From an uncultured delta proteobacterium (lineage in GTDB: Bacteria > Desulfobacterota > Zymogenia > Zymogenales > Zymogenaceae), in assembly GCA_963735595.1 (NCBI GenBank), contig CAVTLK010000002.1:160001-224000 (forward strand): a DNA stretch of 64,000 bases. Direction: 5' to 3'. The position numbers were made by a program, and so were the translations under genes. The number at the start of each line of letters is the position of its first letter. The stretch's first letter is position 1. The notes under the pieces are model-generated. The model searched no databases and was not told the DNA's origin. It worked only from the letters and a program-made list of their open reading frames with translations. Below, piece by piece: positions 1 through 29,428 of the stretch.

Positions 1-385
1 GCTCGCCGGTGATACGAAAGAGGTCGGAAGACGGGATGTAGTCGTCAATCCGGTCGGCAATATCGACCGTGCGGGGGCACTGCCAGGAAATGACGGGATA
101 GAGCAGTTTACCGTTTCTGTCCACGGGGGCGCCGTCGTCCGAAAAAGCGGTGACGACGACCGCCCGTACCGCGTCTTTTCCCACTGCGGCCGCCGTCTTC
201 CTTCCGCACGTGATCAGCTTTCTCCAGACGGTATCGATGTCCCAGATGAGCCAGTCCTTGCCCGGCTCCTGGCGCACCGGCGCGTTGGGGAGCGCCTCCC
301 GGTGTACGATATCGCCCTGTTGGCTAACCGCGATCGCACGGATGTTTGTGGCGCCGCAGTCAAAAACGAGCATGAGCTGCTTCAT
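1..385 (-). CDS. fucK: L-fuculokinase-like FGGY carbohydrate kinase, N-terminal part (runs off window)
   Basis: Not in ORF track; manual translation gives MKQLMLVFDCGATNIRAIAVSQQG...DGAPVDRNGKLLYPVISWQCPRT, closely matching the FucK motifs DCGATNVRAIAV and LLYPIISWKCPRT. A GAGAGGAG RBS lies upstream. Confidence 0.8.
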   Translation of the reverse strand, partial: MKQLMLVFDCGATNIRAIAVSQQGDIVHREALPNAPVRQEPGKDWLIWDIDTVWRKLITCGRKTAAAVGKDAVRAVVVTAFSDDGAPVDRNGKLLYPVISWQCPRTVDIADRIDDYIPSSDLFRITGE

Positions 386-1139: not shown

Positions 1140-1155
1140 TGGAATAGTTTTTGCA
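1140..1155 (+). promoter_or_regulatory. putative sigma54 (-24/-12) promoter of the surface-protein operon
   Basis: TGGAAT-AGTTT-TTGCA with exact GG-N10-GC spacing, 85 nt upstream of the 1240 start. Confidence 0.55.
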
Positions 1156-1239
1156 TTTAATATAAAAGTTTAACGTTCTCATGCAACATGACCACAGCGT
1201 ACAGTACGCGTTATCTGACTGCGGGAGGTATGCACGATA

Positions 1240-3675
1240 GTGAAAAGAATCAGGATTACCGGACGAATCTCGAAGGTGCTCTTATTCTGCGTTCTGCTGT
1301 TTTTACTGCCCGTATTGACATACGCGGTCAGGATCGAGGATGAGGATACCGGGACCGACGTCCTCCTTATGGGGCTGGGAATTCTCAGGGTCAACTACAC
1401 ATCGGTGGAGGGCAACCCCATCATCTTTGAGGACAGCGACCGTGGGCTTCCCGAGTTCTTCTCCAATTCTTCCAGGGCGGATCTTCTGGTCGACGGAACC
1501 GTATATCATAATTACCAGGTGGAAGGCTACCTTCATTACAGAGACATTACCTATAACCTCGAGCCGAACCTTTCGGTGTACCTGAAGATCAAAAGAGATC
1601 TCAATTACCTATCCGTCGGTGATCACCAGGAAGGCGTATTTACCGATACCCTCTTTACCCGTTTCGAACCGGAATTCCGGGGCGCATTGCTCCATATCGA
1701 AGACAAGAACTATGGGCTGGAGGTCTTTGGCGGGGCGGTGCGCGGTAACCAGACCGAAGACGAGATCGATGCCGACGGCAACTCGGGGCCGTATTATACG
1801 TCGTTCTCCCCCGTGATGGCGGCCACCGAATCGGTCTTCATTCGTGTCCGCGATAAGAATAACCCCGCTCTCATACTTAAGAACGATAAGCAGCAGCGGG
1901 GAATCGACTATACTATCGATTATGATACCGGGAAAATAGTATTCACCTACCCGGTGGACTCCACGGACTTCTCCGGAAACCCGATTTCGATCGTGGTCAC
2001 CTATCAGTATGATGATCCCGAAGGCGCCTACAGCCGGTACGTGGCGGGGGGGCGCGTATGGTTCCTGCCCCACGAATATATAAAGATGGGGATGACCTAC
2101 CTCACCAACGGCCCCGTTGACGATACGCTCAATGAAAGCTTCGAAAACCGAATCCAGATCTACGGCACGGATCTAACCATCGATAATAAGAACTCCTTCT
2201 ACCTCGGCGCCGAATTCGCGGCAAGCGACATACCGAACGGCGGCTCGCCGACGGATTTAGCCTACCGGGGGAATTTTACGTGGAGGCCGAGCGCGGATCT
2301 CCGCTTCTGGGGCGGCTACTATCGCGTGGATAAGGATTTTCCGACGTTTGGCTCCACGAGCTTTGATATCGAAAAGATCGTCAAGGAAATTCGATACGAT
2401 GTTCCCTTCGATTTCAGGTCGGGGACCGATATCTATGATCTGAACCCTGACGTTGACGTCGGCCTGGGGACGGATGAGGAATCCTGGGGACTGGCCGGGG
2501 AATACCTGTTTGCACCTAACCACACGCTGACCGCCGGCTATCGCGAGATCAGGGATAATATCCCTTACGACGGGGACCTTCCCCGCACGACGTCCCGCGA
2601 CGTCTACGCGTCTTACCGGTATAATCCGGTGGACCGATTCAACTATTTCGTGGGCGCGCAGTGGATCAAGAGCTTTGACGACCAGAGCCCCCGGCTCGCC
2701 GATACCGAAACCTACCGCCTCATAATGGGGATGAAAGGCCCCCTTGGAAGCTCGCGGATCACCGGCCCGGCCAAGATCGAGGCGGCTTACGTGTATGACG
2801 ATTTCAGGGATCTTGTTGACCATACCGAGAACGAGGCAACCCATTACCTGCTGGCCCGCGTGGACTTCATGCCGGTTCCCGATCTGACGTTTTTCATCGA
2901 GCAGAACGAAATGCTGGTCGCGGGACGGGGAGAGGACGGCGTCGTGCTCAGGGGCGACGCGACCTGGCTTGGGGTAGACTACCGCCGCAAGAGATTACGG
3001 GCCGAGGCGTACTATAAATTCCTGCAGGAGTACGATTATACGTTGGGGCGGGAGGTTACCCGGGAGCACCTGGCTTCTGCGATCGTTACCTACAAGCCGA
3101 CCGATACGGTGGGCGTACGCCTAAAGCTCGAGGTCGGGTTCAACACCGATGCATCGACCCTTCCCGAAACCACGAGCACCGATTACATCGCCGAGGCCGA
3201 GATCGTCTGGGATATCAGGCCGGACCTGGTCCTTTCCGTATCATACGCGCTGGACACCTCCGCCGATGAAACCGGCGGCGCCGGCGACGAGGCTCTGGAA
3301 GACGAGGCGGTGGTCATGATCGAGTACTCTCCCGATCCGGGCGATCTATCCCTCTACGGCGAGTACCGGTTCGAGCGAAGCTACCTGAAGACCGATCCGC
3401 TGTCCGCCGAGGAAACCAGGACCAACACCTACATTATCGGGGGGCGGTATCAATTCCTCCCCAAGTGGGAAGTCGTCGGCGGATTCAAATACGCCGGGAC
3501 AAACGGCGCCCTCGAGAGCCATAAAATGGATACGTTCGTTGAGGTCGGGTACGATCTCTTCGACTGGCTGAAGATGTCTCTCGGATACGAATACCAGGAA
3601 ATGACCGACCGCGAGGCGCCCGATACCGATTACACCGCCAATATCGGCTACCTGAAAGCAACGGGTAAGTTTTAA
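1240..3675 (+). CDS. outer-membrane beta-barrel protein of the DUF11-operon type (putative translocon/anchor)
   Basis: Sec signal (KVLLFCVLLFLLPVLTYA), many amphipathic beta-strands, C-terminal BAM-type signal (IGYLKATGKF), and an inserted domain GNSGPYY...ESVFIRVRDK...RGIDYTIDYDTGKIVF...NPISIVVTYQY. Confidence 0.8.
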   Translation: MKRIRITGRISKVLLFCVLLFLLPVLTYAVRIEDEDTGTDVLLMGLGILRVNYTSVEGNPIIFEDSDRGLPEFFSNSSRADLLVDGTVYHNYQVEGYLHYRDITYNLEPNLSVYLKIKRDLNYLSVGDHQEGVFTDTLFTRFEPEFRGALLHIEDKNYGLEVFGGAVRGNQTEDEIDADGNSGPYYTSFSPVMAATESVFIRVRDKNNPALILKNDKQQRGIDYTIDYDTGKIVFTYPVDSTDFSGNPISIVVTYQYDDPEGAYSRYVAGGRVWFLPHEYIKMGMTYLTNGPVDDTLNESFENRIQIYGTDLTIDNKNSFYLGAEFAASDIPNGGSPTDLAYRGNFTWRPSADLRFWGGYYRVDKDFPTFGSTSFDIEKIVKEIRYDVPFDFRSGTDIYDLNPDVDVGLGTDEESWGLAGEYLFAPNHTLTAGYREIRDNIPYDGDLPRTTSRDVYASYRYNPVDRFNYFVGAQWIKSFDDQSPRLADTETYRLIMGMKGPLGSSRITGPAKIEAAYVYDDFRDLVDHTENEATHYLLARVDFMPVPDLTFFIEQNEMLVAGRGEDGVVLRGDATWLGVDYRRKRLRAEAYYKFLQEYDYTLGREVTREHLASAIVTYKPTDTVGVRLKLEVGFNTDASTLPETTSTDYIAEAEIVWDIRPDLVLSVSYALDTSADETGGAGDEALEDEAVVMIEYSPDPGDLSLYGEYRFERSYLKTDPLSAEETRTNTYIIGGRYQFLPKWEVVGGFKYAGTNGALESHKMDTFVEVGYDLFDWLKMSLGYEYQEMTDREAPDTDYTANIGYLKATGKF

Positions 3676-3696
3676 ACACCAAATGGGTTTTGATAT

Positions 3697-6623
3697 ATGA
3701 AATCACTCAATACCATCCACCATTGGCGTCGTTCTTCTCGCCGTTGGATTGATGCTCTTTCCCGTACGCCGCTCGTCTCGCACGCCGGGACAACGGCGGG
3801 GCTCGTCGGACAATGCGGTATCACGACGGTGTGCGCTGTCAGACCAAAGTTTCGATCTGTCGGCCGACCCGGCCGCAACGCGACCATCGAAGCAGGCAGA
3901 TCCGAGCCATCACCTTTTTTCACCGTTGATGTCGAAGGGACAGCCACTTCTACGGCTCGGTTATGCTCTCGGTGTCCGGACTGCCTTCCCAGTGACGGCG
4001 ACCTTCGACGATAACCCACTAGGGGGCGACGACAACGAGCCTAATTACGTCGGGTGGACACGACGACGGGTGCGGCTGCAGCAATTATGAGACGAAGCTG
4101 CGTATCGACCTCCACCGGCGACGCGTGCCCGGGGACCTATACGCTGACGATAAGCGGAACGAACGAGGAAATCGGTACGAGACGGACGACCGTCACCCTG
4201 GTGGTGGATAGGGAGCGGGGGAGGGGACTTTCACCTCTCGGCGTCCCCGTCTCTGATGGAAGTTCGGCGGGAGAGACCGCCGAGTATACGGTTACCGGGG
4301 TCTTTTCCGGATGCGACCGCTCCGTCGGCGGACTTGTCGGCAGAGGGGCTCCCGTCGGAGGCGTCCGCGTCGTTTGACCCCCAAACGATTAGCAGGGAGG
4401 CTGATTCGTCCGCGCTTACCATCCGGACCGGCTTAGCGACGCCTGCCGGGACGTATACCGTTACCATCGTCGGTCTGAGCGGGGATCTGCGACGGACGAC
4501 GACGGTAATCCTGAAGGTCACCAAGCCGCAGAACTTTGCACTCTTGGCTAAGCCGACCAAGCTGGAAATCAAGTGGAGATAAGGCCGATTTTGCGGTTAT
4601 CGGTGAATTTACCGAAGGTTTACGGGCGAGGTGAAACTCTCTCTTAAAGATACACCGTCCGGCCCGTCGGATCGCTTCAGCCGGAATCGATATCTCCCAA
4701 GGTCATCGACTCCGTCCTGACGATTACCACCACGCGGATACCGAACCCGGCACGTACGAGATCACCAAAAAGGATCAGCGATCGCAGGGCGACCGGACGA
4801 CACGGTGACGCTCACCGTCACGGAGGGGGAGGGAATTTTACGCTCTCGTCCGACCCGACGTCGCGGAGATTGAGGCAGGCGACATTGCCGACTATACGAT
4901 TACCGGTACGTTCGACGGGTGTTTCGGCGGGCCGGTCGAGCTGGTGGTTGACCGGGAGAAGTTAACACTCCCGGACGGCGCCACGTGGTTCTTCCAGCCC
5001 GATGCGTCCATAGACAAGACCGATCCCTCGGCTGTCCTGAAGATAGTGACCGACAAGAAGACACCCGCAGGCACCTACCCGATCCGTATCGTCGACGCCG
5101 AGACCGGGAAAAAGGAGATCTGGGTTGACCTCGTCGTAAAGGAAGTTATTCAGGACTTCTCGCTTTCGGCAAATCCGACCTCCCGTGGTATCGAACCGGG
5201 AGAGACCGCCACGTACACGATCACGGTCAACGAGGGCGGGTCGCTGCCTCCCTATGAGGTGAGCTTCCCCGAGCCCTCGGTCACCGACGGGCTGACGGCG
5301 ACGATAGACCCGATGTCGCTGCCCCCGACCTCGAACACCAACTCGGTAACCCTCACCGTCCAGACGGACGCGACCGTCGAGGAAGGGATATACTCCATCA
5401 CCGTGGAAGCAAGCGGGGGCGGGCATACGGCAAACGTCACCGTGACCCTCGCGATAAATGAGCCGCCCGTTATCGAATCCGCGGGCCTCTCCGTGGATAA
5501 ATCGGTTAGCCCGTCGTCGGCCAAGGTAGGCGGGATGCTGCTCTATACGGTAGAGATCAGAAACACCGGCCGCGGTGTGCTCAAAGAAATCGTCGTTCGG
5601 GACCACATGCCGGCCGGCGTCGGTTACGTGAAGGGAAGCACCACCATTGACGGGAGAAAGGCCACCGAGCCTTCCGGGACAACGACGCTCATCTGGGAAA
5701 TCGACGAGATCGACGGGGGGGACAGCGTAACCCTGAAGTATCACGGGGTGGTCAAGCCCAATATATCCCGGGGAAAAAGCACCAACACGGTCACGATAAG
5801 CGGAACGGACGCGACCGGCAGGACGCTCACCGCCAGGGCGAGCGCCGATCTTGGCGTCTCGTCGGAGACGCTGGATAGAAAAGGAAAGATAAAGGGGAAG
5901 GTCTTCATCGACGAGAACGGCAACGGCCTGAAGAACGTCGACGAGGAAGGGATCGCCGGCGTCTGGATCATCATGGAATCGGGAGAGCGCACCAGCACCG
6001 ACGAAGAGGGCATGTTCCAGTTCGACGAGGTAGACTCCGGCCAGCACCTGGTCGCCGTTGACGTGCGCAAGCTCTCCAAGAAGTACTTCGTCGTCGGAGA
6101 CTCCTCCAAGATCGTCTCGCTCTTTTCCGGCGGTACCGGGAGGACCTATTTCGGCCTCGGACGGACCGGCCCCACGAAAGAGGAGCTGGAGGCGCTGAAA
6201 AAGACCGAGGAGGAGAAGTTAAAGAAGGAGGAAGAGGCCCGCAAGGAGGAGGAAAAGAAGAAGGCAGAGGAGGAAAAGGAGAGAAACGCCCCGAAGGGGA
6301 CCCTCTTCGGCAATGTCTTCGTAGACGCCAACGACAATAATATATGCAACCCCGGGGAAAAGCGCCTCGAAAAGGTGACGGTGCTTCTGGACTCCGGGAA
6401 GAGGTCGGTGACCGACAATGTGGGCAATTACCGCTTCGACAAGGTAAAGGAAGGGCGGCATACCCTCTCCATCCGGGAGGATCAGGAGTTCAAGAAGAGT
6501 TACCGGCTGTCAAAGAAAGAAAAGATCACCGTGAACGTGAAGGCTTCCACGAACAACAGGAAGGATATTCCGGTGTTGGACAAGAGTAAGCTGAAAATCA
6601 ATATCGAGTTAACCGTACGATAA
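3697..6623 (+). CDS. secreted protein: signal peptide, 5 Ig-like repeats, DUF11, SdrD-B-like, charged helix, SdrD-B-like (rejoined across many frameshifts in 3720-4940)
   Basis: Hydrophobic leader (TIGVVLLAVGLMLFP) lies in an alternate frame. Repeat starts F.LSA.P occur at ~3850, 4226, 4531, 4833 and 5154, each ending PGTYTxTI...TTVTLxV. DUF11 motif LSVDKS...DHMPAGVGYVKGST. Two GKVFxDxNxN SdrD-B motifs are separated by an EEEKK-rich linker. Confidence 0.7.
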
Positions 6624-6642
6624 AGCCCGTTGAGGATATTTA

Positions 6643-9600
6643 ATGGATACGATTAGATTCAAACCGGTCACCATGCTTCGGATAACGGGGATACTCCTCG
6701 TGCTCCTGCTCGGGGTCTTCTCCCTGGCGCAGGATATCGGCCTGACGGGCCCGTCGGGGCTGGAGGTCAGCGTCTGCGGCGACGGCCAATTCACTATCAC
6801 GGTTGAAAACGGCGATACCGACATTTCGAATCTGGACATCTACGCGGCCGTTGTGACGGGCGGCGGCAGCGTCATACCCACCAGCGATTTTACGCTGGTA
6901 TATGAATCCGGCACGCCTAATCCCGCGCCCGACTCCCATACGCTCACCCCGGCGACGGTGACATGGTCGGATCGGACCCTTGCCGCGGATGCGACCTGGA
7001 CCGGGAGCCTTACCGTCAGCCCGCACTGCGACGCGTTCTCCAACCGGGAGCTGGTCGTCATGGTCAGCTACGACTACTTCGACGGTGTGGACGTAGTGCA
7101 CGTCGTGGAGACCCCGGTTTACTCGGGCTCCCTGCAGGTGCTCATGCCCAACCTGGTCGTTGAGCTTGACCCCGAGGTCCTCTACGGCATCGCCCCGGGC
7201 GAGACCGCCAGCTGGCCGGTGTACGTATCCAACACCGGCGACGGTGTCCTTTCCGACGGAACGCTGACGGCCGTGCTCGCCCCCGGCGGGGGGTTAGATA
7301 ACCTTACCTTCACCCCGCCCAGCGGCAGCCCGGCGCCGTTGGCGGCGCCCATACCGATGCCTGATCTTATTGCGGGAGCGCCCAGGACGTTCCTGGGCAC
7401 GGTGTCTGCCGATCTCACGGTGGGCACCGCCACCTCCTGCCGGGACATCTACGTTACCTTTACCGGCAACTTCGGGTGCGAGAGCCTCAACTGCCAGCCG
7501 GACGTCGTAGTCACCGGCAGCGTCAACCTGGAATACCGGACGCCCAACCTGACCTATTCCTTCAGCCCGGACCCCATATCTACAATACCCTACTGCGGCA
7601 GCACCAGCGTTACCGTCACCATCGAAAACCCCGGGGCAACCGCGGGCAACATCGTCGGCCTGCAAATGACGGTGGACGCCTTCGGCATGGAATACACCGT
7701 CACGGGTGACACCTCCTCCGAGGTCGACGTGCTGGTCGATACCGGCTCGAACATTTTCAGGTTCGTCGATGCCGCCAACCATAGTCTGCCGGCGGTCATC
7801 GGCCCGGACGACGAGTTCGATTTCACCTTCGATGTCTCGCGCGACGGGTGCGCCACGCTGGACTGCCGGTCATTAATATTCATACCGCAATTCTATGACG
7901 ACTGCGGCGACGTGTTCGAGCCGCCAATCCAGGAACTGCAGATCTCGGCCTACCCGCCGGCCACGTCGGACTATGACCTCACCGTAACACCGGACGCGGG
8001 CAATCCGGCCATCCCGGACGAGGGGGCCACACTCGGCTACACGGTCACGGCGGTCTATAACGCCGAGTCCGGCGAGACGGACGCGACGGCCGACATCGTC
8101 GTAACCTACCCCGCGACCTTTTCGATCGCGGCCGGCACGGACACCGGCTACACGGTCACGGGCGCAAACGAGATAACGTGGGAAGACGAGGACTTCAGCC
8201 CGACGGGCTGGTCGGTTGCCAAGCGGCTGGTACTAACGGCGCATTACGCCGGCACCAGCTGCAACAGCGATTTCACGCTCCACTTCGCCGTGGAGCCGAC
8301 CTCCGGCATGTGCGAGGGAGAGTGCCCGCCCGAGGGGGCCACCGCCAACCTGGGCCTGCTGAGCGATACGATGCTGGTTGTCATCAAGACCGCCGCGGGC
8401 GGGGGCGACGGCATTATATATGTCGGCGAACCTCTGGATTTCACCATCAACGTCTACTATTACGGGCCGCGGCTTTTGATCGGCGGCAGCCTCGTTACGC
8501 CGCCCGCTTTCGTTACAGATACGCTGCCGGCCGGCTTCTGGCTCGAAGAAAGCCTCCCGCCTGACCCGCCTGACCCCGTGGTGAGCCCGGACCCGGTCGA
8601 CACTACCGCCAATCCGCTAACCTGGTGCCTGGACGCGGGCGATCTATCGCAGACCGGTCCGGTCACGTTCACCTACTCGCTGGAGCCGATCCCGTTGGGC
8701 TACCCGGGCTACGATCTCTGCCTCTGCGGTCATACGATCACCAACACCGCGACGGCAACGCTCAATACCACCGGGGCGGCGCCCTGCGCCGTGCCCAATA
8801 CCTCCCCGTTTGGCTGCAGCGACGAGGCGGTGTTGAGCTTCGCCTATAACTGCGATTACGGCACTCCGGCCACGGGCTTTGAGGTCGAGAAGACGGCCGC
8901 GCCGGCCTCCGCGGAGCGGTGCGACTACGAAAACGGGATCACGTTCACGAACACAATCACCTTCAATCAGGCCTACTCGAGCTGGAACGACATCACGTTC
9001 ACTGATAACGGCAACGTCATCGGCATGGCCTTTAGTGAAGCGATACCCCTGAGCGGCACAGCCAATTTCTCCATCACCGCCGGGCCTTCGGCCGGTGCGG
9101 ACGAGGATTACCTAATAACCCTCGGGAACCCAGTAGTGTTGGGTTCAAGCGGCGTTGGACTGACCGGCGGACCCCAGGCCGGCGACGTCCTGGAGATCAC
9201 CTATACCCTCTACTTCTCGAGCGCCGCTAATACTACGGGGACCACCGTCGTCAACTGGTCCGATTATACCGTTGCCACGGTTCCCACGGTGTGTGACGAC
9301 GGCACCAACGAGTTTCACGCCGGGGCGTGGGTGACGCCGATAAACCCGGCCCCCACGGTGACTATCTCTGACTACTGCCACTACGACGACGAGGGACACT
9401 GCACGTTCGTCGTCAACCGGTGCGACAGTTCGACCTTCAGGCTCTATCTCACCAGCACCAGGGTCGAGCGCGACGTTATCGTCCGGATTGAGCTGCTGGA
9501 CAACTACACCTTTGACAGCGCCGTACCAACGTCCTTCGTCAATATAAACAGGCCGGACGGAAGCCCGGTTGCCGCCTTTGCACCCGACACCTCCACGCCG

Positions 9601-12600
9601 GGAGAAGTCACGTGGAACCTCGGCGACCTGGGCGCGATGGGCAGCGACAGCTACCTCCTGTTCAACCTTATGACTGCGTGCTCCGGCGGCACCGAGACGA
9701 ACGCCACCGTCGAGAGCAGCGGGTGGTGCGGGGACTACGACTATTCCAGCAGTCTGTCCTACCGGGCCTCGCGGGGCGAGCGGGAAGGAAAGCTCCTCCT
9801 CAAGAAGACGCCCGACGTCATCTATATCAAGGACCGGGGGGCCAACCTCCCCTGGACGATCTACGTCACCAACCCCGGCAGCGGGCCGGCAACCAACGTC
9901 GTCGTGACCGATACGCTGGGCGCGGGCATCAGCTATGTCGACGGCTCGGCGACGCTCGACGGCGCCCCGGTAACCCCGGTGGTTGTCCCTTCGGCGTACG
10001 CCAGCGGCGTGGAAACTACCGTCACGTTCACCATCGATGAGCTTGCCCCCGGGACAACCGCGACGATCACGCTGACGGGCCACGTGGAGGACTGCGAGAA
10101 CAGGACCAACCGCGTCCGGGCGACGTGGGGATGCTACGACGAGGTAACCGGCTTTGACTACTGCGGCGAAGCCCTGGCCGGCCCGGTGACCGTCCAGGAC
10201 CTCGGCACGCGGGTAATCATCAACCGGCACCAGGCGGACGACATCAACACCTGCGGCGGGACCTCGTTCGTAACGGTCGTGTTCAAGAATATCGGCAAGG
10301 CCTACGCCTACGACATGCTGCTGACCGAGACGCTGCCCCTGGGCGTCGAGTACGATACGGCCTATCCCGGCGGCTGGACCGCAGTGGATGCATTCGGCAA
10401 CAACCTGGCCGCCTACCTGGCCTTTGCCGACGGCAGCAATCACACGACGGGCGGCGGCACCCTTACCTGGACCTTTACAAACAGCATGAAGCCGGTGGAC
10501 AACAGCGGCGAGGGAGACGAGTTCACCATCCGATTCCCGGTAAAGATCGTCGGCTGCGACTATACGAGCGGCGCCTCGATGATGGCCAACCTCAATTACG
10601 ATACCCCGTGCAGCACGGCTACCACCCCCGCGCAGGACACCGTCTCGACCGTGTCGGCTCCGGTACTGGAGGTCACCAAGGGACCGGATATCACCGCGGG
10701 CGACCCGAGCGACCCGATCATCTGGGATATCGAGATCACCAACCCGTCCGGTTACACGGCCATGGCCGTTTTCCTCTGGGACATTCCCGCCCCGGCGAGC
10801 TACTTTTCCAGCGTTACCATCAACGGGCTTTCCGGCTCCGGCACCGAGATCGACCCCTGGGATATCGGGAATATTGCTCCCGGCGACAGCATGCTGTTTA
10901 CGGCACGGGGGATCCTGAGCGACTGCTACCCCACCACGACGGGCAGCAACACCGCCTGGGTCGAGTGGTGCGAGGACTGCAAAACCAGCGCCTCCAGCAA
11001 TATCTCCATGATAAACTCCACGCCCCATGTCACGCCCGGCATCGACCTGGACGTGGACTACTGCGGGGGGAGCGTCACCATCACGCTGGTAAACACCGGC
11101 TCCCGGGCCTACGACATTGTGCTGACGGACGTCTTCCCGGCGGGCTTCGAATATACCGTGGGCTCCGCGGAAATCACGTCGTCGGAGGGAAGGACGTTTA
11201 GCGAGGCGAACGAAGAGCCGCACTACGACGTGCCGACCCGGACACTGACCTGGGACAGCAACGCGGCTACCGCGCCGGTCTTCATGGATACGGCCGGCAA
11301 TACCTATATAGAGAAACTCGAAACCCTGACCATCACGTTCAATCTCGAAAACGAGATGGAGGCGGGAGAACAGTGCACGTCAACCTTCGGGGATACGCAT
11401 ACCGTTTCCATCCACTATGAGGACGCCTGCGACGATACGTATGACGAGACGACGACCGGAACCGCCACGATCCCGGCCTATCCGAACCTGACCGTAACCA
11501 AGGAGCTGGACCCCGTCTACGGGGTAATCGGGGAGACCGACCCCGCCCTGTGGCACGTCACGATAGACAACAACGGCGGTCCGGCCTACGGCACCATCAC
11601 CATCGTGGATACGTTCGGGTCAGGCTGGGACATGACAACAGTCAACGCCCCGGCCACCGTAAACGGCACCGGCACGCGGACGATAGACACCGGCGCGCGC
11701 ACCGTCACCTGGAGCGGCGTGAGCCTTGATACAGGCCCCAGCTCCGAGACGATCGACATATGGGTCCAGCCTCTCAGCACCAGCCCCGAGTCCGACCTGA
11801 GCAACTCCGTGATGGTAACCGGCGCCTGCATCGGCGGATGTAACTACGAATCGGCCGGCGCCACCCAGAACATCGTCCCCGGCCACAGCGAGATCGAAAA
11901 GGTCTACGACAGGGCTACCGCCACGATCGGGGAAACGGTCCACGTGACGATTACCGCGAGCTATTTTGGCGCCGGTACACCCTACGAAGACGTCCTGGTC
12001 GTCGACACGCTGCCGACAGGCCTTACCTACGCCGGCAACCTCACGATAAACGGGACCCCGTCGTCGATCACGCCGGTCGGCCAAACCCTTACCTGGGACC
12101 TCGGGGATTTTCCCGGAACCCAGGCCTATGTTATCGAATTCGATACGTTTGTAGCCAACACCGCCGATACCGACAACGGAGACACGCTGCCCAACACGGC
12201 GACGACCACCTACCTTGTCGGGGCGACGTCGTACACGGATTCTTCCACGACCACCCTGACCATCACCGAGGCGCTGCTGACGATCGACAAGACCTACGCG
12301 GTGGTAGGGGGCGGCCCGGTGGAGGGAAGTGCGGTCATCGAGTATACCCTGACGCTGGCAAACACCGGAACGAGCACGGCGTTTGACATAGACGTCGCCG
12401 ATACGCTGGGCGCGGGGCTCACCAGTCCGACCTGGGTATCGGGCGGCAACAGCCACGATTTCTCCGGCTTCCCGGGATCTGCGCTGCTGTGGCACGTCAA
12501 CAGCCTTGCCGTGGGCGCGTCGACGACGCTCGTCTACCGGGTAACGGTAGAAGACAGCGTGACGCCCTGTTCGATGCTGAACAACGAGGCGATAGTGACC

Positions 12601-15600
12601 TGGACGAGCCTCAACGGGACCCCCACCTTGCCCGCCGAGGAGCGGACGGGCAGCGGGACCCCGGCATACAACGACTACCGGACCAGCGACACGCTCCAGG
12701 TGCCGGTGGACACGGTCGCGTCCATCACCAAGAGCCTGGTGCCCCCAACGGACGGTTACTGGACGATCGGCTCGGAGGTGAACTACCTGATCCGGGTGAT
12801 GCTGCCGCGGACCACTATTTCTGACCTGACGGTTACCGACGTCATCGGCCTCAGCGGTAATAACAGAAACGGCCTGAGATACGAGGGAGCTACCTTCGTG
12901 GCCCCGGGCGGCGGGGCCCTTCCCACCGCGCCGGGCGAGAGCGTTTCTTCGCCCAACGACGGGACGGCCCCGGTCACCGTGACCTGGACGTTTAGTAATA
13001 TCCCCGGGTACGACGCGGCGGCAAGCGGCCCCGACCGGTACCTGTGGATCGCGGTGGAGGCGGTGGTGACCAACGTTGCCGAGAACAACGACGGCGACGT
13101 CATCCCCAACAGGGTCACGGCGACCGACAGCGGCGCGTGCCTGACCTGGCCGGGCGGCAACAGCGCCAGCTCGGCAAACGTGACCGTTCGGGAGGCGGGC
13201 CTGACGATCGACAAGACCTACGCGGTGATAGGGGCGACTCCCGTTGAGGCGGGCGCGGTCATCCGGTATACGCTGACGCTGAGAAACACGAGCACCGTCT
13301 GCACGGCCCATGATATAGACGTGGAAGACACGCTTGGCGCGGGGCTCGCCAGCCCGGCCTACGTATCCGGGGACGTCGCCGGCAATATCTCGCACGATTT
13401 CTCCGGCTTCCCGGGGTCTGCGCTCTTGTGGCATATCAACAGCCTCGCCCCGCTTGCGTCGGTGACGCTGGTTTACGACGTGACGGTAGAAGACACCGTG
13501 ACGCCCTGTTCGATGCTGAACAACGAGGCGGTGGTGACCTGGACGAGCCTGAACGGGTCGCCCGCCGAAGAGCGGACCGGCAGCGGGACGCCGGCGTGGA
13601 ACGACTACCGGACGAGCGACACGCTTTCGATACCGGTGGACACGGTTGCGTCCATCACGAAGGACCTGGTGCCCCCGGCGGACGGTTACTGGACGATCGG
13701 TTCGGAGGTGAACTACCTTATCCGCGTGATGCTGCCTCGGGCGGAGATTTCTGACCTGACGGTGACCGACGTCATCGGCACGGCGGGCCCCACGAACAAC
13801 GGCCTGAGATACGTCGGCGCTACCTTCGTGGCCCCGGGCGGCGGGGCTCTTCCCACCGCGCCGGGCGAGAGCGTTTCTTCACCCAACGACGGGACGGCCC
13901 CGGTGACGGTTACCTGGACGTTTGCCAACATACCCGGGCACCTGGCGGACCCGGACGAAGCCGATAACGACCGGTACCTGTGGATCGCGGTGGAGGCGGT
14001 GGTGACCAATGTTGCCGAGAACAACAACGGCGACAGCATACCCAACAGGGTTACGGCCACGAGCAGCGGCGCGTGCCTGACGTGGCCGGGCGGCAACAGC
14101 GCCAGCTCGGCAAATGTCCTGGTGCGCGAGGCCAACATTACAATTGACAAGACCTACGCGGTGATAGGGGCGACTCCCGTTGAGGCGGGTGCGGTCATCC
14201 GGTATACCCTGACGCTGAGAAACACGAGCGCCGTCTGCACGGCCTACGACATAGACGTCGAAGATACTCTGGGCGCGGGGCTCACCGGTCCGACCTACGT
14301 ATCGGGGGACGTCGCCGGGAATATCACGCACGATTTCTCCGGCTTCCCGGGATCTGCGCTCTGTGGCATATCAACAGCCTCGCCCCGCTTGCGTCGGTGA
14401 CGCTGGTTTACGACGTGACGGTGAGAAGACACGCGTGACGCCCTGCTCGATGCTGAACAACGAGGCGGTGGTGACCTGGACGAGCCTGAACGGGTCGCCC
14501 GCCGAGGAGCGGACCGGCAGCGGGACGCCGGCGTGGAACGACTACCGGACCAGCGATACGCTTTCGATACCGGTGGACACGGTTGCGTCCATCACGAAGG
14601 ACCTGCAGCCCCCGGCGGACGGTTACTGGACGATCGGCTCGGACGTCTACTACCAGATCCGGGTGATGCTGCCGCGGGCGGACGATTTCGGACCTGACGG
14701 TGACCGACGTCATCGGGACGGCGGGTAACGCCAACAACGGCCTGAGATACGAGGGTGCAACCTTTGTGGCCCCGGGCGGCGGGAGTATCTCGCCCACGTC
14801 AACCAATATTTCGACGCCGAACGACGGGACGGTACCGGTGACGGTGACATGGGAGTTTGCCAACATACCGGGATACGACGCGGCGGCAAGCGGCCCCGAT
14901 CGGTACCTGTGGATTATAGTGCACGCGGTGGTGACGAACGTCGACCAGAACAACGACGGCGACAGCATCCCCAACACCGTCACGGCGACGGATACGGGCT
15001 CGTGCCTTACCTGGCCGGGCGGCAACAGCGCCAGCTCGTCCAACGTGATCGTGCGCGAGGCGGGCCTGACGATCGACAAGACCTACGCGGTTATATCGGC
15101 CTCCGGCCTTGTGGAAGCGGGCGCGGTCATCCGGTATACCCTGACGCTGGAAAACGAGAGCACCGTCTGCACGGCTTACGACATAGAAGTGGAAGACACG
15201 CTGGGGCCGGGACTCACCGGTCCGACCCATGTATCCGGCGGTGACAGCCACGATTTCTCCGGCATCCCTATTACGTTCCATATAAACAGCCTCGCCCCGG
15301 GCGCCTCGACGACGCTCGTCTATGACGTGACGGTAGACAGCTAACTCCGACGTGGTGGCCTGCTCGACACTGGACAACGAGGCGATGGTGACCTGGACGA
15401 GCCTCAACGGGTCGCCCGCAGAAGAGCGGACGGGCAGCGGGACGCCGGCGTGGAACGACTACCGGACCAGCGATACGCTCCAGGTGCCGGTCAATACGGA
15501 CGCGGCTATCACCAAGACGCTCACGTCCGACCCGACCGTGACGATCGGTTCGACGGCGACCTACGACATCACCGTTACGCTGCCGCAGGCCCAGATCACG

Positions 15601-18600
15601 GACCTGACCGTTGCCGACGTGATCGGCGTGGCCGGTGACGCCAACAACGGCCTGAGATACGTCAGCTCTACCATCGAGGTGCCGGGCGGCGGGGCCATTA
15701 CGCTTACCCCCACCGTCTCCACGCCGAACGACGGGACGGGCCCGGTCACCGTGACCTGGGAGTTTACCAACATCCCCGGGTACCTGGCGACCCCGGCCGC
15801 CCGCGACCTGGTGATCCACGTCACCACGGACGTGCCGGACGTCGTTGAGAACAAGGACGGCGACGTCATCCCCAACACCGTCACGGCCACGGATACCGCT
15901 TCGTGCCTGATCTGGCCCGGCGGTAACAGCGCCAGCTCGGCAGATGTGACGGTGCGCGTGCCGGCCCTGACGATAGAAAAGAGCGTGACCGAGATACTCG
16001 GCGCCGACGGCGTGCCGCGCGCCACCGTCGAGCCGGGCAGCGTGGTGACCTACACGATCACCGTCAACAACGTCGGCAGCGGGGAGGCCAGAAACGTTAC
16101 CGTCTCCGACACCCTGCTGCCCGAGTTCGAGAACCCGCTCCACGTCTCCGGCGGGGACAGCCACAATTTCTCCGGCAACCCGCTCACGTGGACCGTCAAC
16201 AGCATACCGGGCAACAGCTCGGCAACGGTAGTCTTCTCCGTGACGGCGACCAGCGCCATCACCGAGGGCGGCCTCTACATTAACTGCGCCTCGGTCGTCG
16301 GCGAGGATATCCTGGGCAACGTGATACCGGCCGACAACACCGACCATGTCTCGGCCGACACGTACGACACCGCCACCGGCACCGACAGGTCCTGTGCGCA
16401 GGTAACCGGGGCGGTCCCGACGCTGACGCTCGACAAGGAGATACTCTCGGTCAACGGCGTCGCGTATACCAGCGACATGACCGTTCAGCCCGGCGATTAC
16501 GTCATATACCGCGTCACCGTCACCAACACCGGGACGGGCACGGCCTACGACCTTAACGTAACCGATACCTTATCCGAGGGGCTTGGCTACGGCGATTACC
16601 TGGCGCCGCTAAGCGATACGCCGCCGACCCTGGGGACCGGAACGTATACGAGCGCCACATGGAGCGACTACTACGACGCGACGACGTAACCCCGGTACCG
16701 GCAGGATCGCTTACCGCCCATACCCATGGTAACGCCCCGGAGGACACCGGCGGCACGGTTCCCGCGACCATCGGCACGCTCATCTGGGACGGCTCGGACA
16801 TCCGTCCGCTCTCGCTCCCGTCCTCGTTCGCCGAACCCGAACGTTACCGGCATCGTGCTGCCGGGCGGCCAGACCTACACGATCGAGTACGTCGCCTACG
16901 TAAACGGATCGATTATCCAGCATTCGGTGGCTGAAAACCTGGCCGATGCCGAGGCAAAGGACGGATGGGGGACGACGGTGCCGTGTAATGAAGACCACAC
17001 GTCTATCAACACGCGCGAGCCGTTCTTCGTCACCGAAAAGACCATCACCCAGATCGACGGCGATCCCACAAACACGCTGGTGGCTGTGGTCGGCAGCATC
17101 ATCGACTACTCGTTTACCATAACCAACGTCGGTGAGGGCGACGCCCACAACGTCAACATCTTCGACACGCTGCCGATCGGGTTTGTATACGTCCCGGGCA
17201 GCGCCAACATCGGCGAACCGACGATCTCGCTTGACGAGCGAGACCTCACCTGGCTTGTCAACGCGGACATCGCCTCGGGCGGGATCTATACTGTCACGTT
17301 CCAGGCGGAGGTGACCGACGGCACGTCGGGCGGCACCATGTACAACGTGATGTGGGTCGAGGGGCTGGACCTCAGCGATCAGCCGGTCACCAAGGACGGA
17401 TCGGGGATCACACCGCTCGATACCGACGCCGACGACCTGGACGACGTACCGGTCGAGGTCGATATCCCGAACGTGCCGCTCATCCTCGTGAAAGACGTAA
17501 CACCCCGCAGTGTCAGCGCCGGCGCGGTCGTGCACTACACGGTTACCTTTACCAACAACCGGAAGATCAGCTTCTATGATGCGACTATCACAGATACGAT
17601 GCCGCACGGCTTCACGTATCTACCCGGCACGACCCTGCTCGATGGCGTGCTCATCGCCGATCCGACCGGGAACAACCCCTACGTGTTCTCTATCGGAACG
17701 GTTGGGCCGGAGAGCGTGGCGAGGCTTGATTATTACGTGCTGGTGTCGCAGCTGCCCGTCACGGCGCGAACGTCAACTGGGCCGTGCTCAACGCCCACGA
17801 CGGCGCGGGCAAGCCCATCAGCCTCAAGGATCGGGCGACGGTAACGGTAACGGACGACAGCTTCTTTGATTTCGAGAAGTTCCCGTTCCTGCCCCGGTTC
17901 TCCCGGCCGACGGCCGCGCCCGAGGTTCCCCGCGTGCCGGAGAAAGGAACGTCCGCGTCCCGAGTGCTGCCTGGTCGTGACGGCGATTCCCGTTCGCTCC
18001 CAGGATTTCGGCGATACGGTGCCGGGCCGCCCGGAGATCTACTACCAGACCGACATAGCGATGTACGCCGCAACGGAGCTCCTGGTGACCGAAAAGAGGA
18101 TGACGCCGTGGCTTGAAGTGCAGGGATTTGACCCCGAGCGCACATACCTTATGACCGGCCTCTACAACCGGATGATCACCAAGCTCGGCGAGTACGCCCA
18201 GTATAACCTCGGGAACGTTGTCATGGAATCGCTCCTGGGTATCCCCCTTGAGTACGCACCGGGTGTCCTGGAGAAGGCCCGCCGCGAGGGCACGACGCCG
18301 GAGCGGGCGGGAATCGAACTCACCAGGGACCTCGCCGAAAGCGGCGGGCCTGTCCGCGGTTCCCGACATCCAGCCGATATTCCTCGAATACTTCGGTTCC
18401 TACCCCTACCTGCATGAGCGGATAGCCGAAGACAAGCTCGCCTGGGAAGAGGGGCTGATGGATAAGAACATCATGCCGGCCGCCCTCGGCTTTACGCTGC
18501 TCCGGGAGGCGGGCCAGATCGAGATGTTCCTGGCCAGCACCGATCCCACCGAGCGGTTCTTCGGCCTGCTGCTGCTGACCCAGGCGATCGAAAAGACCAG

Positions 18601-21600
18601 GTCCATATCGACGGACCTGGCGAAGACCGCGGAGTTCTCGCCGCCGGTAAAATACCTGCCTCACTTCAGCAGGATCGAGGTCGAAAAGGGCAGGGGCCTG
18701 ACGTGGCGCACGACCGACGAGACCAGCACGCTCTATGACCATGCGTCGGTCCTCTGGGGCCTTTCCAAGCTCAGGAGCGTGGCACTGCATTCGGCCGACC
18801 CCGATGTCAGGGCGCTGGTGCCCCAGATCACCGAGCGGATGAACGAGATCTACCGGGCCATCGAGGCGATACACTACGATGAACAGAGCAAGGGCTTCGT
18901 GAGCGTTCATGCCCCCGGGAAGGGAGATGATGAAAAGAGCATAGCCGCCAAGGACCTCGCCTTTACGATCCTGGCGATGCGGTCGGTCCTGTTTGACAAC
19001 CGCGACCTGTCGATCAATACGATCGACCCGAAACGCAAGATCGTCGAGATCGCCGATTTCATGATCGAAGAGCTCATGAGCGACGATGGAGGCGTCTATA
19101 CCGCATACAATTACGCCGACGGAACCCCCGTCGTGGGAGTGAAGCGGAACCTGGTCGACAACGCCCTGGCAGTCCGGGCGCTCCTTTCGGCTTACGTCGT
19201 CACCGAGGACAGGAAATATAGGAACGCCGCGCTCAGGGTCTACGCGTTCATGGTCAAGGAACTCTGGTATGAAGACCTCATGATCTTCATCGACGAGGAG
19301 GACCCGGACTACGAGGTGGTGCTGACCCCGCAGTCCATCGGCGCGCTGATAGGGGCCCTCAGGGATCTGGTGCTTTACGGCGACCCGAAAATGCGGCACG
19401 ACTATCTTGACCGGATGTCGTACACGACCGACCGGGTGCTCGACCAGTCCCAGCTTCAGCTCTACGAGAACCGGTTCTTCCCGTGGCATGCGCCTATCAC
19501 GATCGTCCCGAAAGACCCCAACGGGAGGTCCTACATCAAGCCGATCGTCACGACGATCCGCGACAAGGGGATATCCCACGACCTTGCCCCGATCCTCGTG
19601 CGCAAGATGGTCCTCAACATAACGCCTACCGGCGCCATTGCGTCCGGCAACGAAGACGCAGTCTCCGACTGGAACAAGTGGAAGGCCGACCTGCGCTACG
19701 AAGTCCCCGACGTCATTGCGAGCGCGGTTATTGACGACACGTTTGTAACCGACGAAGGCATGTACTTCACGACGCTCACGCGGGATTATCAGCAGAACCT
19801 GAACGCGGACCTCCCGGCGTTTAACCCGTATCATACGGACCCGGGCATCCAGGTCTACGGCGCGTTCGTGGGAGGCGAGGTAAGCAGCTACAACGTGAAG
19901 AACCTGACCCTCAATTCCGGTATGGGGATCGGCCTTTCCGAGTCCGAGCTGGTCAGGAGGCTTGCGAAGAAGGCCGGCAAGAGCCCGGAGAAGTACCTGA
20001 CCGATTACGTGGGAGCGCGGGCGCCGAAAGACGCCGCGGGAGATGATATCCTTTCACGGTTCATTAACAGGGTGAAGGGCGCGGTTGGGCTTGCCGCGGG
20101 CGGGCGGTTCACCGATATTATCTACCTTGAATATACCTCATCCAAGCCCTTCTATACCGAAGGTATCTCCGACGGGTGGGACGAGAAGACCTTTGATGAG
20201 AAGCTTACGGTCTCCTCCATGTCCTCGACGATGGTGCGGCAGATCATGTTCATCGTGGATAGCAACGGACGCACCGATCTGTCGGCGTCGGATAGGTTCG
20301 TGAACGACGTGATAACGATGTCGGTTGCGGCAAAGCGTGTCGTTCTCGGCGAGATCATCCGCAATGCCCAGAAAGACGGAATCGCCGGCGTCCCCCACAG
20401 CTACATGATGGTCCCGGATGAGAAGGAAAAACGCTCAGCCGTCACAATCGCGGAAAAGAAATCGACCCTCTTTGACGACACGTTCGCGATCTGGGCCGTG
20501 GCCCTCTTTATGGATGCCGAAAAGCAGGGACTCTTTGACGACTACCGCGCGGTCATGACGGACGTGACCGACGACGAAGCGGTCCTTGCCGCGCTCATCG
20601 ACGCGCTCATCGCCCACCATTACAACGCCGAGTACGGTACGCTGGTGACCGGCAGTGTCAACACCGTGGAGGTCTCAAAGGCCCTTGACATGCTGACGAG
20701 AGCCGCCGAAGTAATGGATGACGGGCCGGCCAAGGAGAAGCTCACGGGCCTGATCACGGAAACAGGCGGACTTCATCATGACACGGCTTGCGACCGATAC
20801 GGGATTTGAACCCATGATCGGGCTGGGCGGCGAGACAATCCCCGCCGACCTCTGCGAGATGGAGACCCTCGGGACGAACGTCTTCCCGATTCTTGCCCTC
20901 GTCCGAACGTGGGAGGTTACCGGCGACGAGAAGTACCTGAACAGGGCCCTTGTCTTCTTCGATCGTTTCGACGAAAGCAAGTGGGACCAGGAAATCGGGC
21001 TCTATCTCTCTTCAGGGACTATCTATAAGGCGACCGATGTGTCCAAGCTTGAGCTCAACTACAATAACCAGGAGCTCATCGCGGCGGTACTCCTGATCTC
21101 CAAGCTTCAACCGCACCTTTCCGGGGAACGGAAGATACTGTCGGCCTACCACATGACGACCTTTATGAACCGTATCATGGAGATCGCCAGCGTCGAGCGC
21201 TACCCGGGCAACGAAGACTCAGGCAATACGATCTACTCGCCCGAGATTATCAGGAGCGTCAAGATAGTCCTGTCCGAATCCAGGGGAGTCGGTAAGCCGG
21301 GAGACATATTCACCAACCGGATCGTTATCGACAACGACTGCTACGACGGGATCAGCCGGCCGCTTTCGCGCATCAGGATCGAACAGACACTGCCCGACGG
21401 CTTCCACTACGTGCCCGGCAGCACCCGGTTCAACGGGGCGGCCGGTCCCGATCCGATCGGCAGAAAGACCCTCAACTGGTACTACCCGCTGCTGAACGGC
21501 AGGAACCGGCTGGTTATCGATTACCAGGTCGTGGCCGATCCGACCATCGCTGAAGGCTCATATACGGCCACCCTTGACGTTATGGCGTTTTCGGGATACG

Positions 21601-21731
21601 GAGGCGACTACGTCCTCTGTGAGGATCGTGACATAGCGGCAACGACCCTTATTGTCGCAGACCCCTTTGCCGAAGTAGTGGAAAAGGCGTGTGTGCCGTG
21701 CGATGTCGGCAGGAGGGCCCTCTCGCGATAG
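6643..21731 (+). CDS. giant (~5,000 aa) DUF11/isopeptide-repeat surface protein with a duplicated alpha-helical C-terminal module (rejoined across ~10 single-base indels)
   Basis: Sec signal (ILLVLLLGVFSLA-QD). ORF pieces 6643-14400, 14363-14728, 14700-15344, 15352-16689, 16659-16934, 16726-17844, 17784-18116, 17866-18417, 18218-20809 and 20778-21731 continue one another in domain content with no internal RBS/starts. Indels are visible by comparing repeat copies (e.g. cgctcttgtgg at ~13421 vs cgctctgtgg at ~14357). Confidence 0.75.
12277..15966 (+). repeat. four tandem ~900-940 bp direct repeats inside the giant gene (two DUF11-type domains per unit)
   Basis: Units begin (L/I)TIDKTYAV at 12277, 13201, 14137 and 15066, with long identical DNA stretches encoding e.g. 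EERTGSGTPAWNDYRTSDTL and CLTWPGGNSASS. Confidence 0.9.
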
Positions 21732-21772
21732 ATGTTCCTGCCGCACCGCGTGGTATGACGTATGGTTCTTTC

Positions 21773-21806
21773 AAGGCGGGCGCCCCAGACGGGCGCCCGC
21801 CTTTTT
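21773..21806 (+). terminator. intrinsic terminator closing the surface-protein operon
   Basis: aaggcgggcgccc-cagac-gggcgcccgcctt followed by a T run. Confidence 0.85.
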
Positions 21807-21881: not shown

Positions 21882-21910
21882 TTGACAAATGACCCATCGG
21901 TGTTTAGATT
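21882..21910 (+). promoter_or_regulatory. sigma70-like promoter of clpB
   Basis: TTGACA-17 nt-TAGATT. Confidence 0.6.
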
Positions 21911-21959
21911 AAAAGGGAAAGAGACTACGCCGTATGTAAGAGAGGTAGAAGAATAACCA

Positions 21960-24551
<2,592 letters not shown>

Positions 24552-28666: not shown

Positions 28667-29299
28667 ATGAAAGACAGGACCAAAAATATAATCCTCGACG
28701 TGTCAAAGCGCCTCTTCGCCGAACGCGGTCTGGATAAGACGAAGGTTGAGGATATCGTCCAGGAGGGCCGGATATCAAGGGCGACGTTCTACAACTATTT
28801 CCACAATAAGGAGGAAATCTTCTTCTATCTTATCGAGGCGGAGATCAACCAAATACAGACGGACGCAGACAGAGGGATCGAAGCGGAAACCGATCCTTAC
28901 CGAAAGATAAAGATTTACTGCTTGAAGGTCATCCTCGGTGCGCGGGAAATGACCCGGCTCCTGGGCTTAAACGGCGAGGGATTTGAGACACTACCTCCTG
29001 CGCCGAAGAAGATGGTCGAGACGAGCTACCAGAGGAGTATCGCCACCATTACGAAGATCCTCAATAGCGGGGTTGAGACCGGTGCCTTTATCATATCAAA
29101 TACCGAGCTGACCGCACATATCATCCTCAGTGCCCTGGAAATCTATATCAACCCGAGCAAGCTGGGCGGCATCCGGGAAGAGTCCATCGAGGACCAACTC
29201 GATGAGCTCATGGAGGTGCTCTTTTACGGTTTCTCGAAGAAGGAGAAGGCGGAATCCGGCCGGGCGGTTGAAAAAGGTGGGAAGACCAGGACGGGGTAA
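28667..29299 (+). CDS. TetR/AcrR-family regulator
   Basis: N-terminal HTH (LFAERGLDKTKVEDIVQEGRISRATFYNYFHNKEEIF). Confidence 0.93.
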   Translation: MKDRTKNIILDVSKRLFAERGLDKTKVEDIVQEGRISRATFYNYFHNKEEIFFYLIEAEINQIQTDADRGIEAETDPYRKIKIYCLKVILGAREMTRLLGLNGEGFETLPPAPKKMVETSYQRSIATITKILNSGVETGAFIISNTELTAHIILSALEIYINPSKLGGIREESIEDQLDELMEVLFYGFSKKEKAESGRAVEKGGKTRTG

Positions 29300-29428
29300 G
29301 TCCCCGTAAGGACAACAGACGGCTGGAGCCCGCATGATTAATAGCGGGCCGCTTCCCGAGTACGTACGAGCAAGAGATACAAGTATCGGATATATGGAAT
29401 AAATTCCCCAGATTTGTGGAGTCAGAAA

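Follow-up and report, generated by a model that had tools for sequence, protein, structure and literature searches.

Costa et al. (10.1101/2025.04.25.650565) established the DUF11 (CLIPPER) domain as a stalk-forming unit that is locked by isopeptide bonds in fibrillar adhesins, and neither "barrel" nor "secretion" occurs in the main text of that paper. Among outer-membrane beta-barrels, SprA is named as the largest known by Lim et al. (10.64898/2026.03.07.710327), where labels of 34, 38 and 40 strands are dropped, and the SlpA paper (10.1101/2022.05.18.492506) mentions three predicted 38-strand barrels in Deinococcus radiodurans. Here we describe three genes that bring the two themes together, in a stretch of 64,000 nucleotides (nt) from an uncultured delta proteobacterium (GCA_963735595.1, contig CAVTLK010000002.1, positions 160,001 to 224,000; hereafter the window). 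They form an operon that is conserved across relatives and that we read, with a probability of roughly 0.58, as a two-step export-and-anchor system for DUF11 fibres. A search of the open literature, with subscription journals mostly uncovered, returned no description of the barrel or of the operon, and a paper on the lineage (10.1101/2021.03.22.436540) nowhere uses "secretion", "adhesin" or "pili". The family may already have been noticed among the D. radiodurans barrels (supplement, PMC9388160), and the genome of that species does carry DUF11.

Gene 1 (1240..3675, on the forward strand, as are all features below unless stated) is an intact open reading frame (ORF) for an 811-amino-acid (aa) protein modelled as an outer-membrane beta-barrel. 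Gene 2 (3697..6623) encodes a secreted protein composed of Ig repeats, DUF11, SdrD-B, a charged linker and another SdrD-B, and gene 3 (6643..21731) a giant DUF11/CLIPPER fibre protein. A reading made from the sequence alone (the sequence-only reading) had noted three co-oriented genes with gaps of ~20 nt between a sigma54-like promoter and a strong terminator, and this layout holds: the gaps are 21 nt (genes 1 and 2) and 19 nt (genes 2 and 3). A predicted sigma-54-type -24/-12 promoter motif, GG-N10-GC, lies at 1140..1155; of 9 genomes examined, 5 have a similar motif between -85 and -109, and a stricter pattern occurs just 30 times in the genome, which has two rpoN genes. At the other end, a 13-bp GC-rich hairpin with a T run (21773..21806) is a likely intrinsic terminator (-30 kcal/mol and z -4.96 for 21773-21803, with 1 of 200 shuffles equally good); it is retained with an altered loop in the relative G003, is not evident in G005 or G007, and was not among the calls of a simple terminator scan of the window. 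The Sec signals that had been assigned to all three proteins were assessed by eye and stand for the barrel and the giant, that of gene 2 being legible only when frame breaks are crossed, and in relatives. As had also been stated, autotransporter, POTRA, sortase and OmpA families are lacking from the 11 operon pieces scanned against Pfam.

The genome encodes BamA and LpxC, and the organism is thus a diderm with lipopolysaccharide genes. The barrel is present in 8 of 9 same-family genomes, and the order barrel-gene 2-giant in seven of those eight, the contig of the eighth stopping after the barrel; the gene order is identical in G064 and G100, members of another family. Close homologues carry the NCBI label Deltaproteobacteria, and a tblastn search of the genome with the operon proteins revealed no paralogue of any.

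AlphaFold2, given an 82-row alignment, returned a barrel model with a predicted local distance difference test (pLDDT) score of 89.8 and a predicted template modelling score of 0.81; a single-sequence fold reached a pLDDT of only 30.6 and was discarded. The model has ~34 membrane strands starting at the mature N-terminus (strand count and closure were read by hand off the DSSP list); odd strands are followed by long loops, even ones by short turns. It has a backbone diameter of ~60 Å by the standard formula with a shear of n+4 assumed. The protein has a Sec-type signal peptide (by eye) and a C-terminal Phe, and gene 1 is thus confidently modelled as an outer-membrane barrel of ~34 strands. Fold searches of solved structures gave no close match, which does not in itself prove a new fold: the best PDB matches in Foldseek were SlpA chains at template modelling (TM) scores of 0.31-0.38, compared with 0.31-0.35 for SprA and 0.20-0.26 for ushers, and the top VIA match was MtrB (Z 14.2, root-mean-square deviation 12.4, 448 residues aligned). 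A sequence-profile search of the PDB with the barrel returned generic porins only.

Between strands 7 and 8 of the model lies a beta-rich insert (1747..2010; model residues 141-228), which holds the most conserved motif of the barrel family, as judged from conserved alignment columns, and which the model would place as an extracellular loop. The insert is where the barrel approaches SprA. TIGR04189, the SprA model, is matched by 19 of 25 motif-only proteins scanned (six above cut-off), and hhalign of family inserts against SprA-like inserts gave 99.2%, a figure that is partly circular as both sets were selected by the motif; the window insert alone matches TIGR04189 at E 0.013. At the level of the whole barrel, no NCBIfam family, TIGR04189 included, was found at E≤0.01, solved SprA was not recovered by the barrel or insert profiles (A2, A6) in the PDB sequence search, and the insert profile had no significant match among PDB sequences. 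Genome searches for SprA and for the type IX C-terminal domain found no match, but these, like the ShlB search, gave no signal in control genomes either. From the sequence comparisons we consider it likely that a loop domain is common to the barrel family and SprA. The same loop motif occurs in proteins of ~1,200 aa (L054, L063, L067, L084, L112) and of 1,700-1,900 aa (L074, L083, L100, L124), and in further ones (L064, L075, L090, L094; L095, L120, L131), from Ignavibacteria, Bacteroidota, Elusimicrobia, WOR-1/Margulisbacteria and Poribacteria. These are mostly under the SprA cut-off and have no DUF11 nearby, and may, to judge by their sequences, belong to a wider superfamily of giant barrels sharing the loop motif.

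A phmmer search with the barrel matched 1,473 representatives at E≤0.001, spread over many phyla. In most of the matches listed (150 of 1,473) the barrel takes up ~800 residues at the C-terminal end of a longer protein, and the fused homologues that the sequence-only reading had mentioned do exist. In a 75-row tree the window barrel groups with other stand-alone barrels in a 25-member clade (Shimodaira-Hasegawa-like approximate likelihood ratio test 99), to which neither the fused majority nor the split forms of cyanobacteria belong; the tree is a quick one with a midpoint root and long branches, and we claim no direction of change from it. A motif scan of species-representative genomes yielded at least 119 stretches, of which 80 with flanks were analysed and 39 dropped, and the family threshold of 200 bits was set after the scores had been seen (highest control 147, lowest family member 239). 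Of 36 family loci, 19 have the barrel fused to a DUF11-SdrD-B pair and 14 have the pair adjacent (33/36 linked, by profiles built partly from fused members), the three others being a contig open at the 5' side of the barrel, a 4-kb contig and a locus with an SdrD-B-only neighbour. DUF11 was found at 0/44 motif-only control loci. Among same-phylum loci chosen from strong matches, 19/20 had the pair and the remaining one was a 2-kb contig. The neighbourhood survey that had been proposed as a check, co-occurrence of barrel homologues with DUF11, thus came out positive for this family. We define a DUF11-associated giant barrel family by full-length homology to the barrel together with a fused or adjacent DUF11-SdrD-B pair, and on these sequence terms the window barrel qualifies.

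Pfam finds one DUF11 and two SdrD-B domains in gene 2. Its DUF11-SdrD-B pair (5481..6158) is marked by profile matches and complex prediction as a putative lumen-docking module. Of 97 extensions lying N-terminal to fused barrels, 92 are matched by this pair, with a median of 66.6 bits. Prediction of the complex between barrel residues 6-782 and module residues 3-225 scored 0.67 against 0.00 for the best control, the calibration mark being reached by 116/157 solved and 2/215 mismatched pairs; at least 64% of contacts agree between runs and the pLDDT of the partner is at least 79. In the predicted complex the barrel contacts the module through alternate residues of strands 28-34 and 1-3, the pattern of lumen-facing residues. 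DUF11 residues 17-19 and 90-93 touch barrel residues 685, 697, 699, 723, 725 and 733, close to where the strands run into long loops, and SdrD-B residues 166, 188-190 and 211 touch barrel residues 16-19, 52 and 779, towards the short-turn side, a polarity that suggests a pair threaded through the pore, N-terminus facing out. This orientation fits the fused proteins, where a cell-wall-binding OmpA domain lies C-terminal of DUF11 (in P0038, DUF11 371-480, OmpA 793-891 and the barrel from ~1190). We regard a complex between barrel and module as highly probable; the solved structures searched contain none like it. The Glu/Lys-rich linker and second SdrD-B that follow (6159..6620; translation and Pfam) would form a periplasmic tail.

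The sequence-only reading had paired the barrel with the DUF11/SdrD-B protein and suggested modelling the two together, and on both points the analysis agrees with it: the partners are linked by neighbourhood, by the fused extensions and by predicted binding, and modelling gave a confident barrel as well as a high-scoring complex. Its "adaptor" label for gene 2 is doubtful. Because the predicted pose threads gene 2 with the N-terminus out, gene 2 looks like a threaded, anchored client and not only an adaptor, and elsewhere (Sinorhizobium meliloti, G100) it is the giant that carries the module. At the end of gene 2 (~6580-6620), after the second SdrD-B, there is an extra alternating hydrophobic strand, seen also in the gene-2 proteins of G064 and G100 and in the G100 giant; from its pattern it could be a donor strand.

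Gene 3 is collinear with an intact 4,389-aa protein of G007. It holds many DUF11 domains according to Pfam, as well as isopeptide-type TIGR04226 matches; TIGR04226, TIGR01451 and PF01345 all score above cut-off, all 11 DUF11 matches of the genome fall within genes 2 and 3, and the N-terminal 2,585 aa of the giant match DUF11-type Ig families only. As a long secreted protein with tandem DUF11, it is by domain content a CLIPPER/DUF11 fibrillar adhesin, with isopeptide bonds and adhesion as predicted properties. Four tandem stalk units of ~930 nt (12268..15982; 74-81% alike, self-BLAST offsets 924, 1860 and 2789) largely account for its being longer than the giants of relatives, and one such unit is skipped in related-strain contigs. 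The last stalk DUF11 (17470..17841) is, by profile matches, most like the docking DUF11: it matches 83/97 fused extensions, against 11-42/97 for six other stalk DUF11s, and the docking profile ranks its counterpart far above the other DUF11s in the giants of G007 (104 bits, others ≤61) and G002 (86 bits, others ≤53). In a plain alignment, which is only suggestive, module positions 17-18 read Gly-Gly in gene 2, as they do in the G002, G007 and G100 copies of the last stalk DUF11; the Gly-Gly is absent from the last stalk DUF11 of the window and from cyanobacterial modules. At the predicted cleavage site of the giant (window 6727-6735), Ala is followed by Gln in 7/7 family relatives read, and residues +1/+2 are Gln-Asp in 6 of the 7; Gln at +1 could cyclise to pyroglutamate.

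Near the C-terminus of the giant, two tandem helical repeats of ~545 aa (17965..21254, the second from ~19583) were recognised by self-alignment, the halves aligning at E 1e-13 and 3e-14; the sequence-only reading had passed over this ~1,100-aa tandem. No Pfam family falls on the repeats. Their profile matches chains of cellobiose epimerases and of GH76 mannanases over positions 284-440 of 538, with E between 7e-5 and 9e-4, and the Atlas leads stand at 0.83, which weakly suggests a likeness to (alpha/alpha)6 folds of cellobiose epimerase or GH76 type; the epimerase His motif is not evident by eye in the alignment. The repeats occur in 7/9 family genomes and 0/291 others, with one further fragment in the protein collection. 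The giant then ends (21246..21731; translation and profiles) in a DUF11-like domain, matching 63/97 fused extensions, and a short two-cysteine tail, with no SdrD-B. Elsewhere giants are direct carriers of the module, as the 3,362-aa giant of S. meliloti T073 (WP_198388080.1) ends in DUF11-SdrD-B and overlaps the barrel gene (WP_088196626.1), and that of G100 ends in two SdrD-B-like domains. In the window giant the helical pair occupies the place of SdrD-B. The G100 giant has a helical region at the equivalent place, for which homology found no support (hhalign 1.4%, no profile match), and we claim a likeness of layout only.

We propose that all three proteins would reach the periplasm by Sec, with the machinery that assembles beta-barrels (BAM) inserting the barrel. 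DUF11 Ig-like chains would then traverse the ~34-strand pore N-terminus first, and passage would stop once a docking DUF11 lodges in the lumen, with DUF11 at the outer and SdrD-B at the periplasmic rim. Gene 2, held by SdrD-B, would have its Ig repeats outside and its linker and second SdrD-B inside. The giant, too, would pass through the gene 1 barrel and dock there by its last stalk DUF11, leaving ~3,600 stalk residues outside, and would be held either by the helical repeats or by gene 2; its export by this route seems to us rather probable. The least certain step is that the two bulky helical repeats might stay in the periplasm as a stopper, a role we consider rather unlikely on the sequence matches at hand. 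The operon encodes no energy source, motor or ATPase, and folding and isopeptide locking of DUF11 outside the cell would probably act as the ratchet. That all this amounts to a distinct class of secretion system in many diderm phyla, with an SprA-related barrel of at least 34 strands, motorless export of folded self-crosslinking Ig chains, a lumen-docking DUF11 stop and two clients with different stoppers (an SdrD-B tail and two sugar-enzyme-like toroids), is a tentative view to which we give somewhat less than an even chance.

Both client genes are frame-broken in this assembly, a point missed by the sequence-only reading. Gene 3 lies in 8 pieces (7 breaks), the longest of 2,585 aa, so the ~5,000-aa protein described there fits the span (15,089 nt, ~5,030 aa if intact) and does not exist as a single ORF in the window. 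Gene 2, not intact either, is broken 5' of 4809, would encode ~975 aa if intact, and matches relatives in all three frames over its first 1.1 kb. Seven breaks in gene 3, and others crowded into the 5' part of gene 2, could mark true pseudogenes in the organism; among sequencing runs none covered half of the stretch, and no RNA data set with it was listed. However, when 116 ORFs from two same-genus relatives were used as a control, 21 of the 85 with a clear orthologue were split in this genome, at 1.14 breaks per 1,000 aa, a background that predicts ~6 breaks for gene 3. Furthermore, G003, whose barrel is 97% identical, is broken at other sites and open across the window break near 20760, related-strain contigs (from 4 of 24 listed sequencing runs, other strains) show indels at the breaks near 15337, 16682-16695 and 18337-18342, and promoter, barrel and terminator are intact. 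The giant is intact in G007 and reaches at least 4,269 aa in G002, and whole gene-2 orthologues measure 967 aa (G001), 862 aa (G002) and 748 aa (G006). As the genome-wide break rate matches and relatives are intact, the breaks are most likely assembly errors, and we give pseudogenes very little weight. Stop-codon read-through was ruled out, as successive pieces mostly shift frame.

The export-and-anchor reading has to be set against other uses of the same parts. As an adaptor, gene 2 could be the base and a permanent resident of the lumen, as LptE is of LptD, with the giant passing first or chaperoned and then held on the outer end of gene 2 by domain contacts or disulfides. Such a model would account for the full DUF11-SdrD-B pair being confined to gene 2 within the window family, for the fixed order barrel-gene 2-giant and for the conserved two-cysteine tail, and extra DUF11-only genes beside fused systems (19/36 and 15/20 loci) must join in some other way than by the module. 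Yet giants elsewhere bear the module themselves, that of the window retains a docking-like DUF11, and a pore filled by gene 2 would hardly pass a second chain; we therefore think this arrangement unlikely, at perhaps one chance in several. Export might also be absent altogether: the barrel would then be an anchor with its pore plugged, and genes 2 and 3 would build a scaffold within the periplasm or across the envelope, in the manner of SlpA/OmpM tethers. The SlpA chains at the top of the Foldseek matches, Sec-type signals that reach only the periplasm and the lack of any encoded motor are compatible with this, but the predicted pose has the N-terminus outward, OmpA lies on the C-terminal side in fused forms, and a ~3,600-residue stalk with a variable number of repeats is typical of surface adhesins and far exceeds the width of the periplasm, so that we hold it improbable. 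More improbable still is that the giant leaves by a secretin, a TolC-type channel or vesicles and that the barrel captures it, or gene 2, from outside. Secretin and TolC-family proteins are present in the genome, but the sole secretin found sits in a cluster of type IV pilus type, presumably pilMNOPQ-like, type I substrates lack Sec signals, and barrel and passenger are one polypeptide in 19/36 family loci.

Several observations weigh against the export-and-anchor reading that we prefer. In the motif scan, all 14 loci with split genes come from cyanobacteria and are hence not independent of each other. The barrel-DUF11 linkage is not universal, as G301, a genome of unstated completeness with a stand-alone barrel from the clade of the window barrel, gave no DUF11 match, and L121 has only an SdrD-B neighbour. 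The alignments behind the complex prediction share the fused proteins, which may have inflated its score, and the calibration is only approximate for alignments of our own. The docking-DUF11 ranking in G002 and G007 relies on a profile that includes the family's own gene 2, the giant of the window family lacks SdrD-B and with it half of the modelled contact surface, and the sequence matches behind the stopper fold are weak. Finally, the sigma-54 motif was not found upstream in 4/9 genomes examined, three of which have a TTGACA-type hexamer instead.

When set beside known systems, the operon departs in defining features from the numbered secretion types that it resembles, in agreement with the sequence-only reading. 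In the proposed mode of action it comes closest to type V. It resembles types Va and Vb in its Sec signal, its barrel, the N-terminal position of the passenger in fused forms, the giant-plus-barrel operon in split forms and the lack of an obvious energy source, but these have 12 and 16 strands respectively against ~34 here, and here POTRA and autotransporter domains are missing, the passengers are DUF11 Ig-like chains and not beta-helices, and two folded domains would, by the prediction, sit inside the pore. No operon piece matches PF03797, of which the genome has a single sub-cut-off match elsewhere, and the barrel is a separate gene; nor did we find Omp85, ShlB or POTRA matches, or a TPS domain or beta-helix in the N-terminal 2,585 aa of the giant. 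Like SprA/Sov (36 strands), the system has a barrel of great size formed by one chain, a loop domain of ~90 residues bearing the motif also seen in SprA-like proteins, and probably folded cargo; SprA, however, exceeds 2,000 aa against the 811 aa here, the clients here are fused or in the same operon, and the TIGR04189 cut-off is not reached. Like chaperone-usher barrels (FimD/PapC, 24 strands), the barrel would pass Ig-like domains, anchor a fibre and carry a loop-inserted beta domain, but the fibre is a single polypeptide and not a series of strand-swapped subunits, no usher or PapD-type family occurs in the operon pieces, and the barrel model has no usher-like N- or C-terminal periplasmic domains. 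LptD-LptE and MtrB-MtrA likewise hold a second protein inside a large barrel, but here there are more strands, superposition is poor and the partner is an Ig chain extending beyond the pore.

A type I system is not indicated, since the N-terminus of the giant is, by eye, of Sec type, RTX repeats were not matched, and the nearby membrane-fusion protein pairs with an AcrB-family pump. The type I RTX adhesins LapA and MpIBP are giant Ig-repeat proteins that a folded periplasmic stopper holds in the pore, much as proposed here. They are exported by an ABC/membrane-fusion protein/TolC apparatus, lack a Sec signal and stay in place through their N-terminus; retention in the present system, in contrast, would be C-terminal, with a Sec-type signal. 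A tether of SlpA/OmpM type finds no counterpart either, as there is no SLH match and the barrel starts at the mature N-terminus with no coiled coil ahead of it. The giant is closest to CLIPPER fibrillar adhesins in its tandem DUF11 stalk with isopeptide-type domains, and differs in having no OmpA anchor and in its helical tandem near the C-terminus.

Further members extend the picture of the family. At the locus L121 (2114-8661) the barrel stands alone, at 799 aa, and the protein encoded after it, of 1,247 aa, has three lamin-tail domains and ends in two SdrD-B domains, with no DUF11 detected; the SdrD-B tail alone may, on this domain layout, be a sorting signal. The family also occurs on plasmids (24 records matched), several of them annotated "TonB-dependent receptor", among them p4 of Acinetobacter haemolyticus w12 (L192, CP085288.1), with a DUF11 cluster, a fused barrel and OmpA, and a conjugative S. 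meliloti plasmid (L193, NZ_CP021807.1). Some genomes have more than one fused system (three in G048, two in G057). Two weaker barrel-like frames of 544 and 571 aa elsewhere in the genome of the window (G000:C1:278117-278881 and G000:C5:527799-528590) match only barrel profile positions 268-528 at E 5e-20 and 6e-16, similar frames of 540-660 aa exist in most family genomes, and possibly these form a smaller related barrel family that lacks the insert.

In the window itself, the operon terminator is followed by a sigma-70-type promoter (10/12) and an intact 863-aa gene (21882-24551), which we take from its sequence to be ClpB-like; the downstream neighbour differs in G005 and G007, placing this gene outside the system. 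Upstream lies a divergent FGGY-family sugar kinase (2-385, reverse strand), and upstream neighbours vary among relatives. Farther downstream are a TetR regulator, the membrane-fusion protein and the AcrB-family pump (28667-33619), the last split into 691 + 352 aa, probably by another assembly break, and a 1,687-aa hybrid histidine kinase with many PAS, GAF and receiver domains (43074-48137).

Cultured carriers of the system, such as S. meliloti T073, Geomonas, Sphingopyxis and Calothrix, make it directly testable. If the export-and-anchor reading is true, the lumen-docking domain pair could be used as a display tag, and the type IX translocon would gain a minimal relative that needs one to three genes. 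It would also give a large class of Gram-negative DUF11/CLIPPER fibres a route of export and anchoring, for which the structure paper names none.

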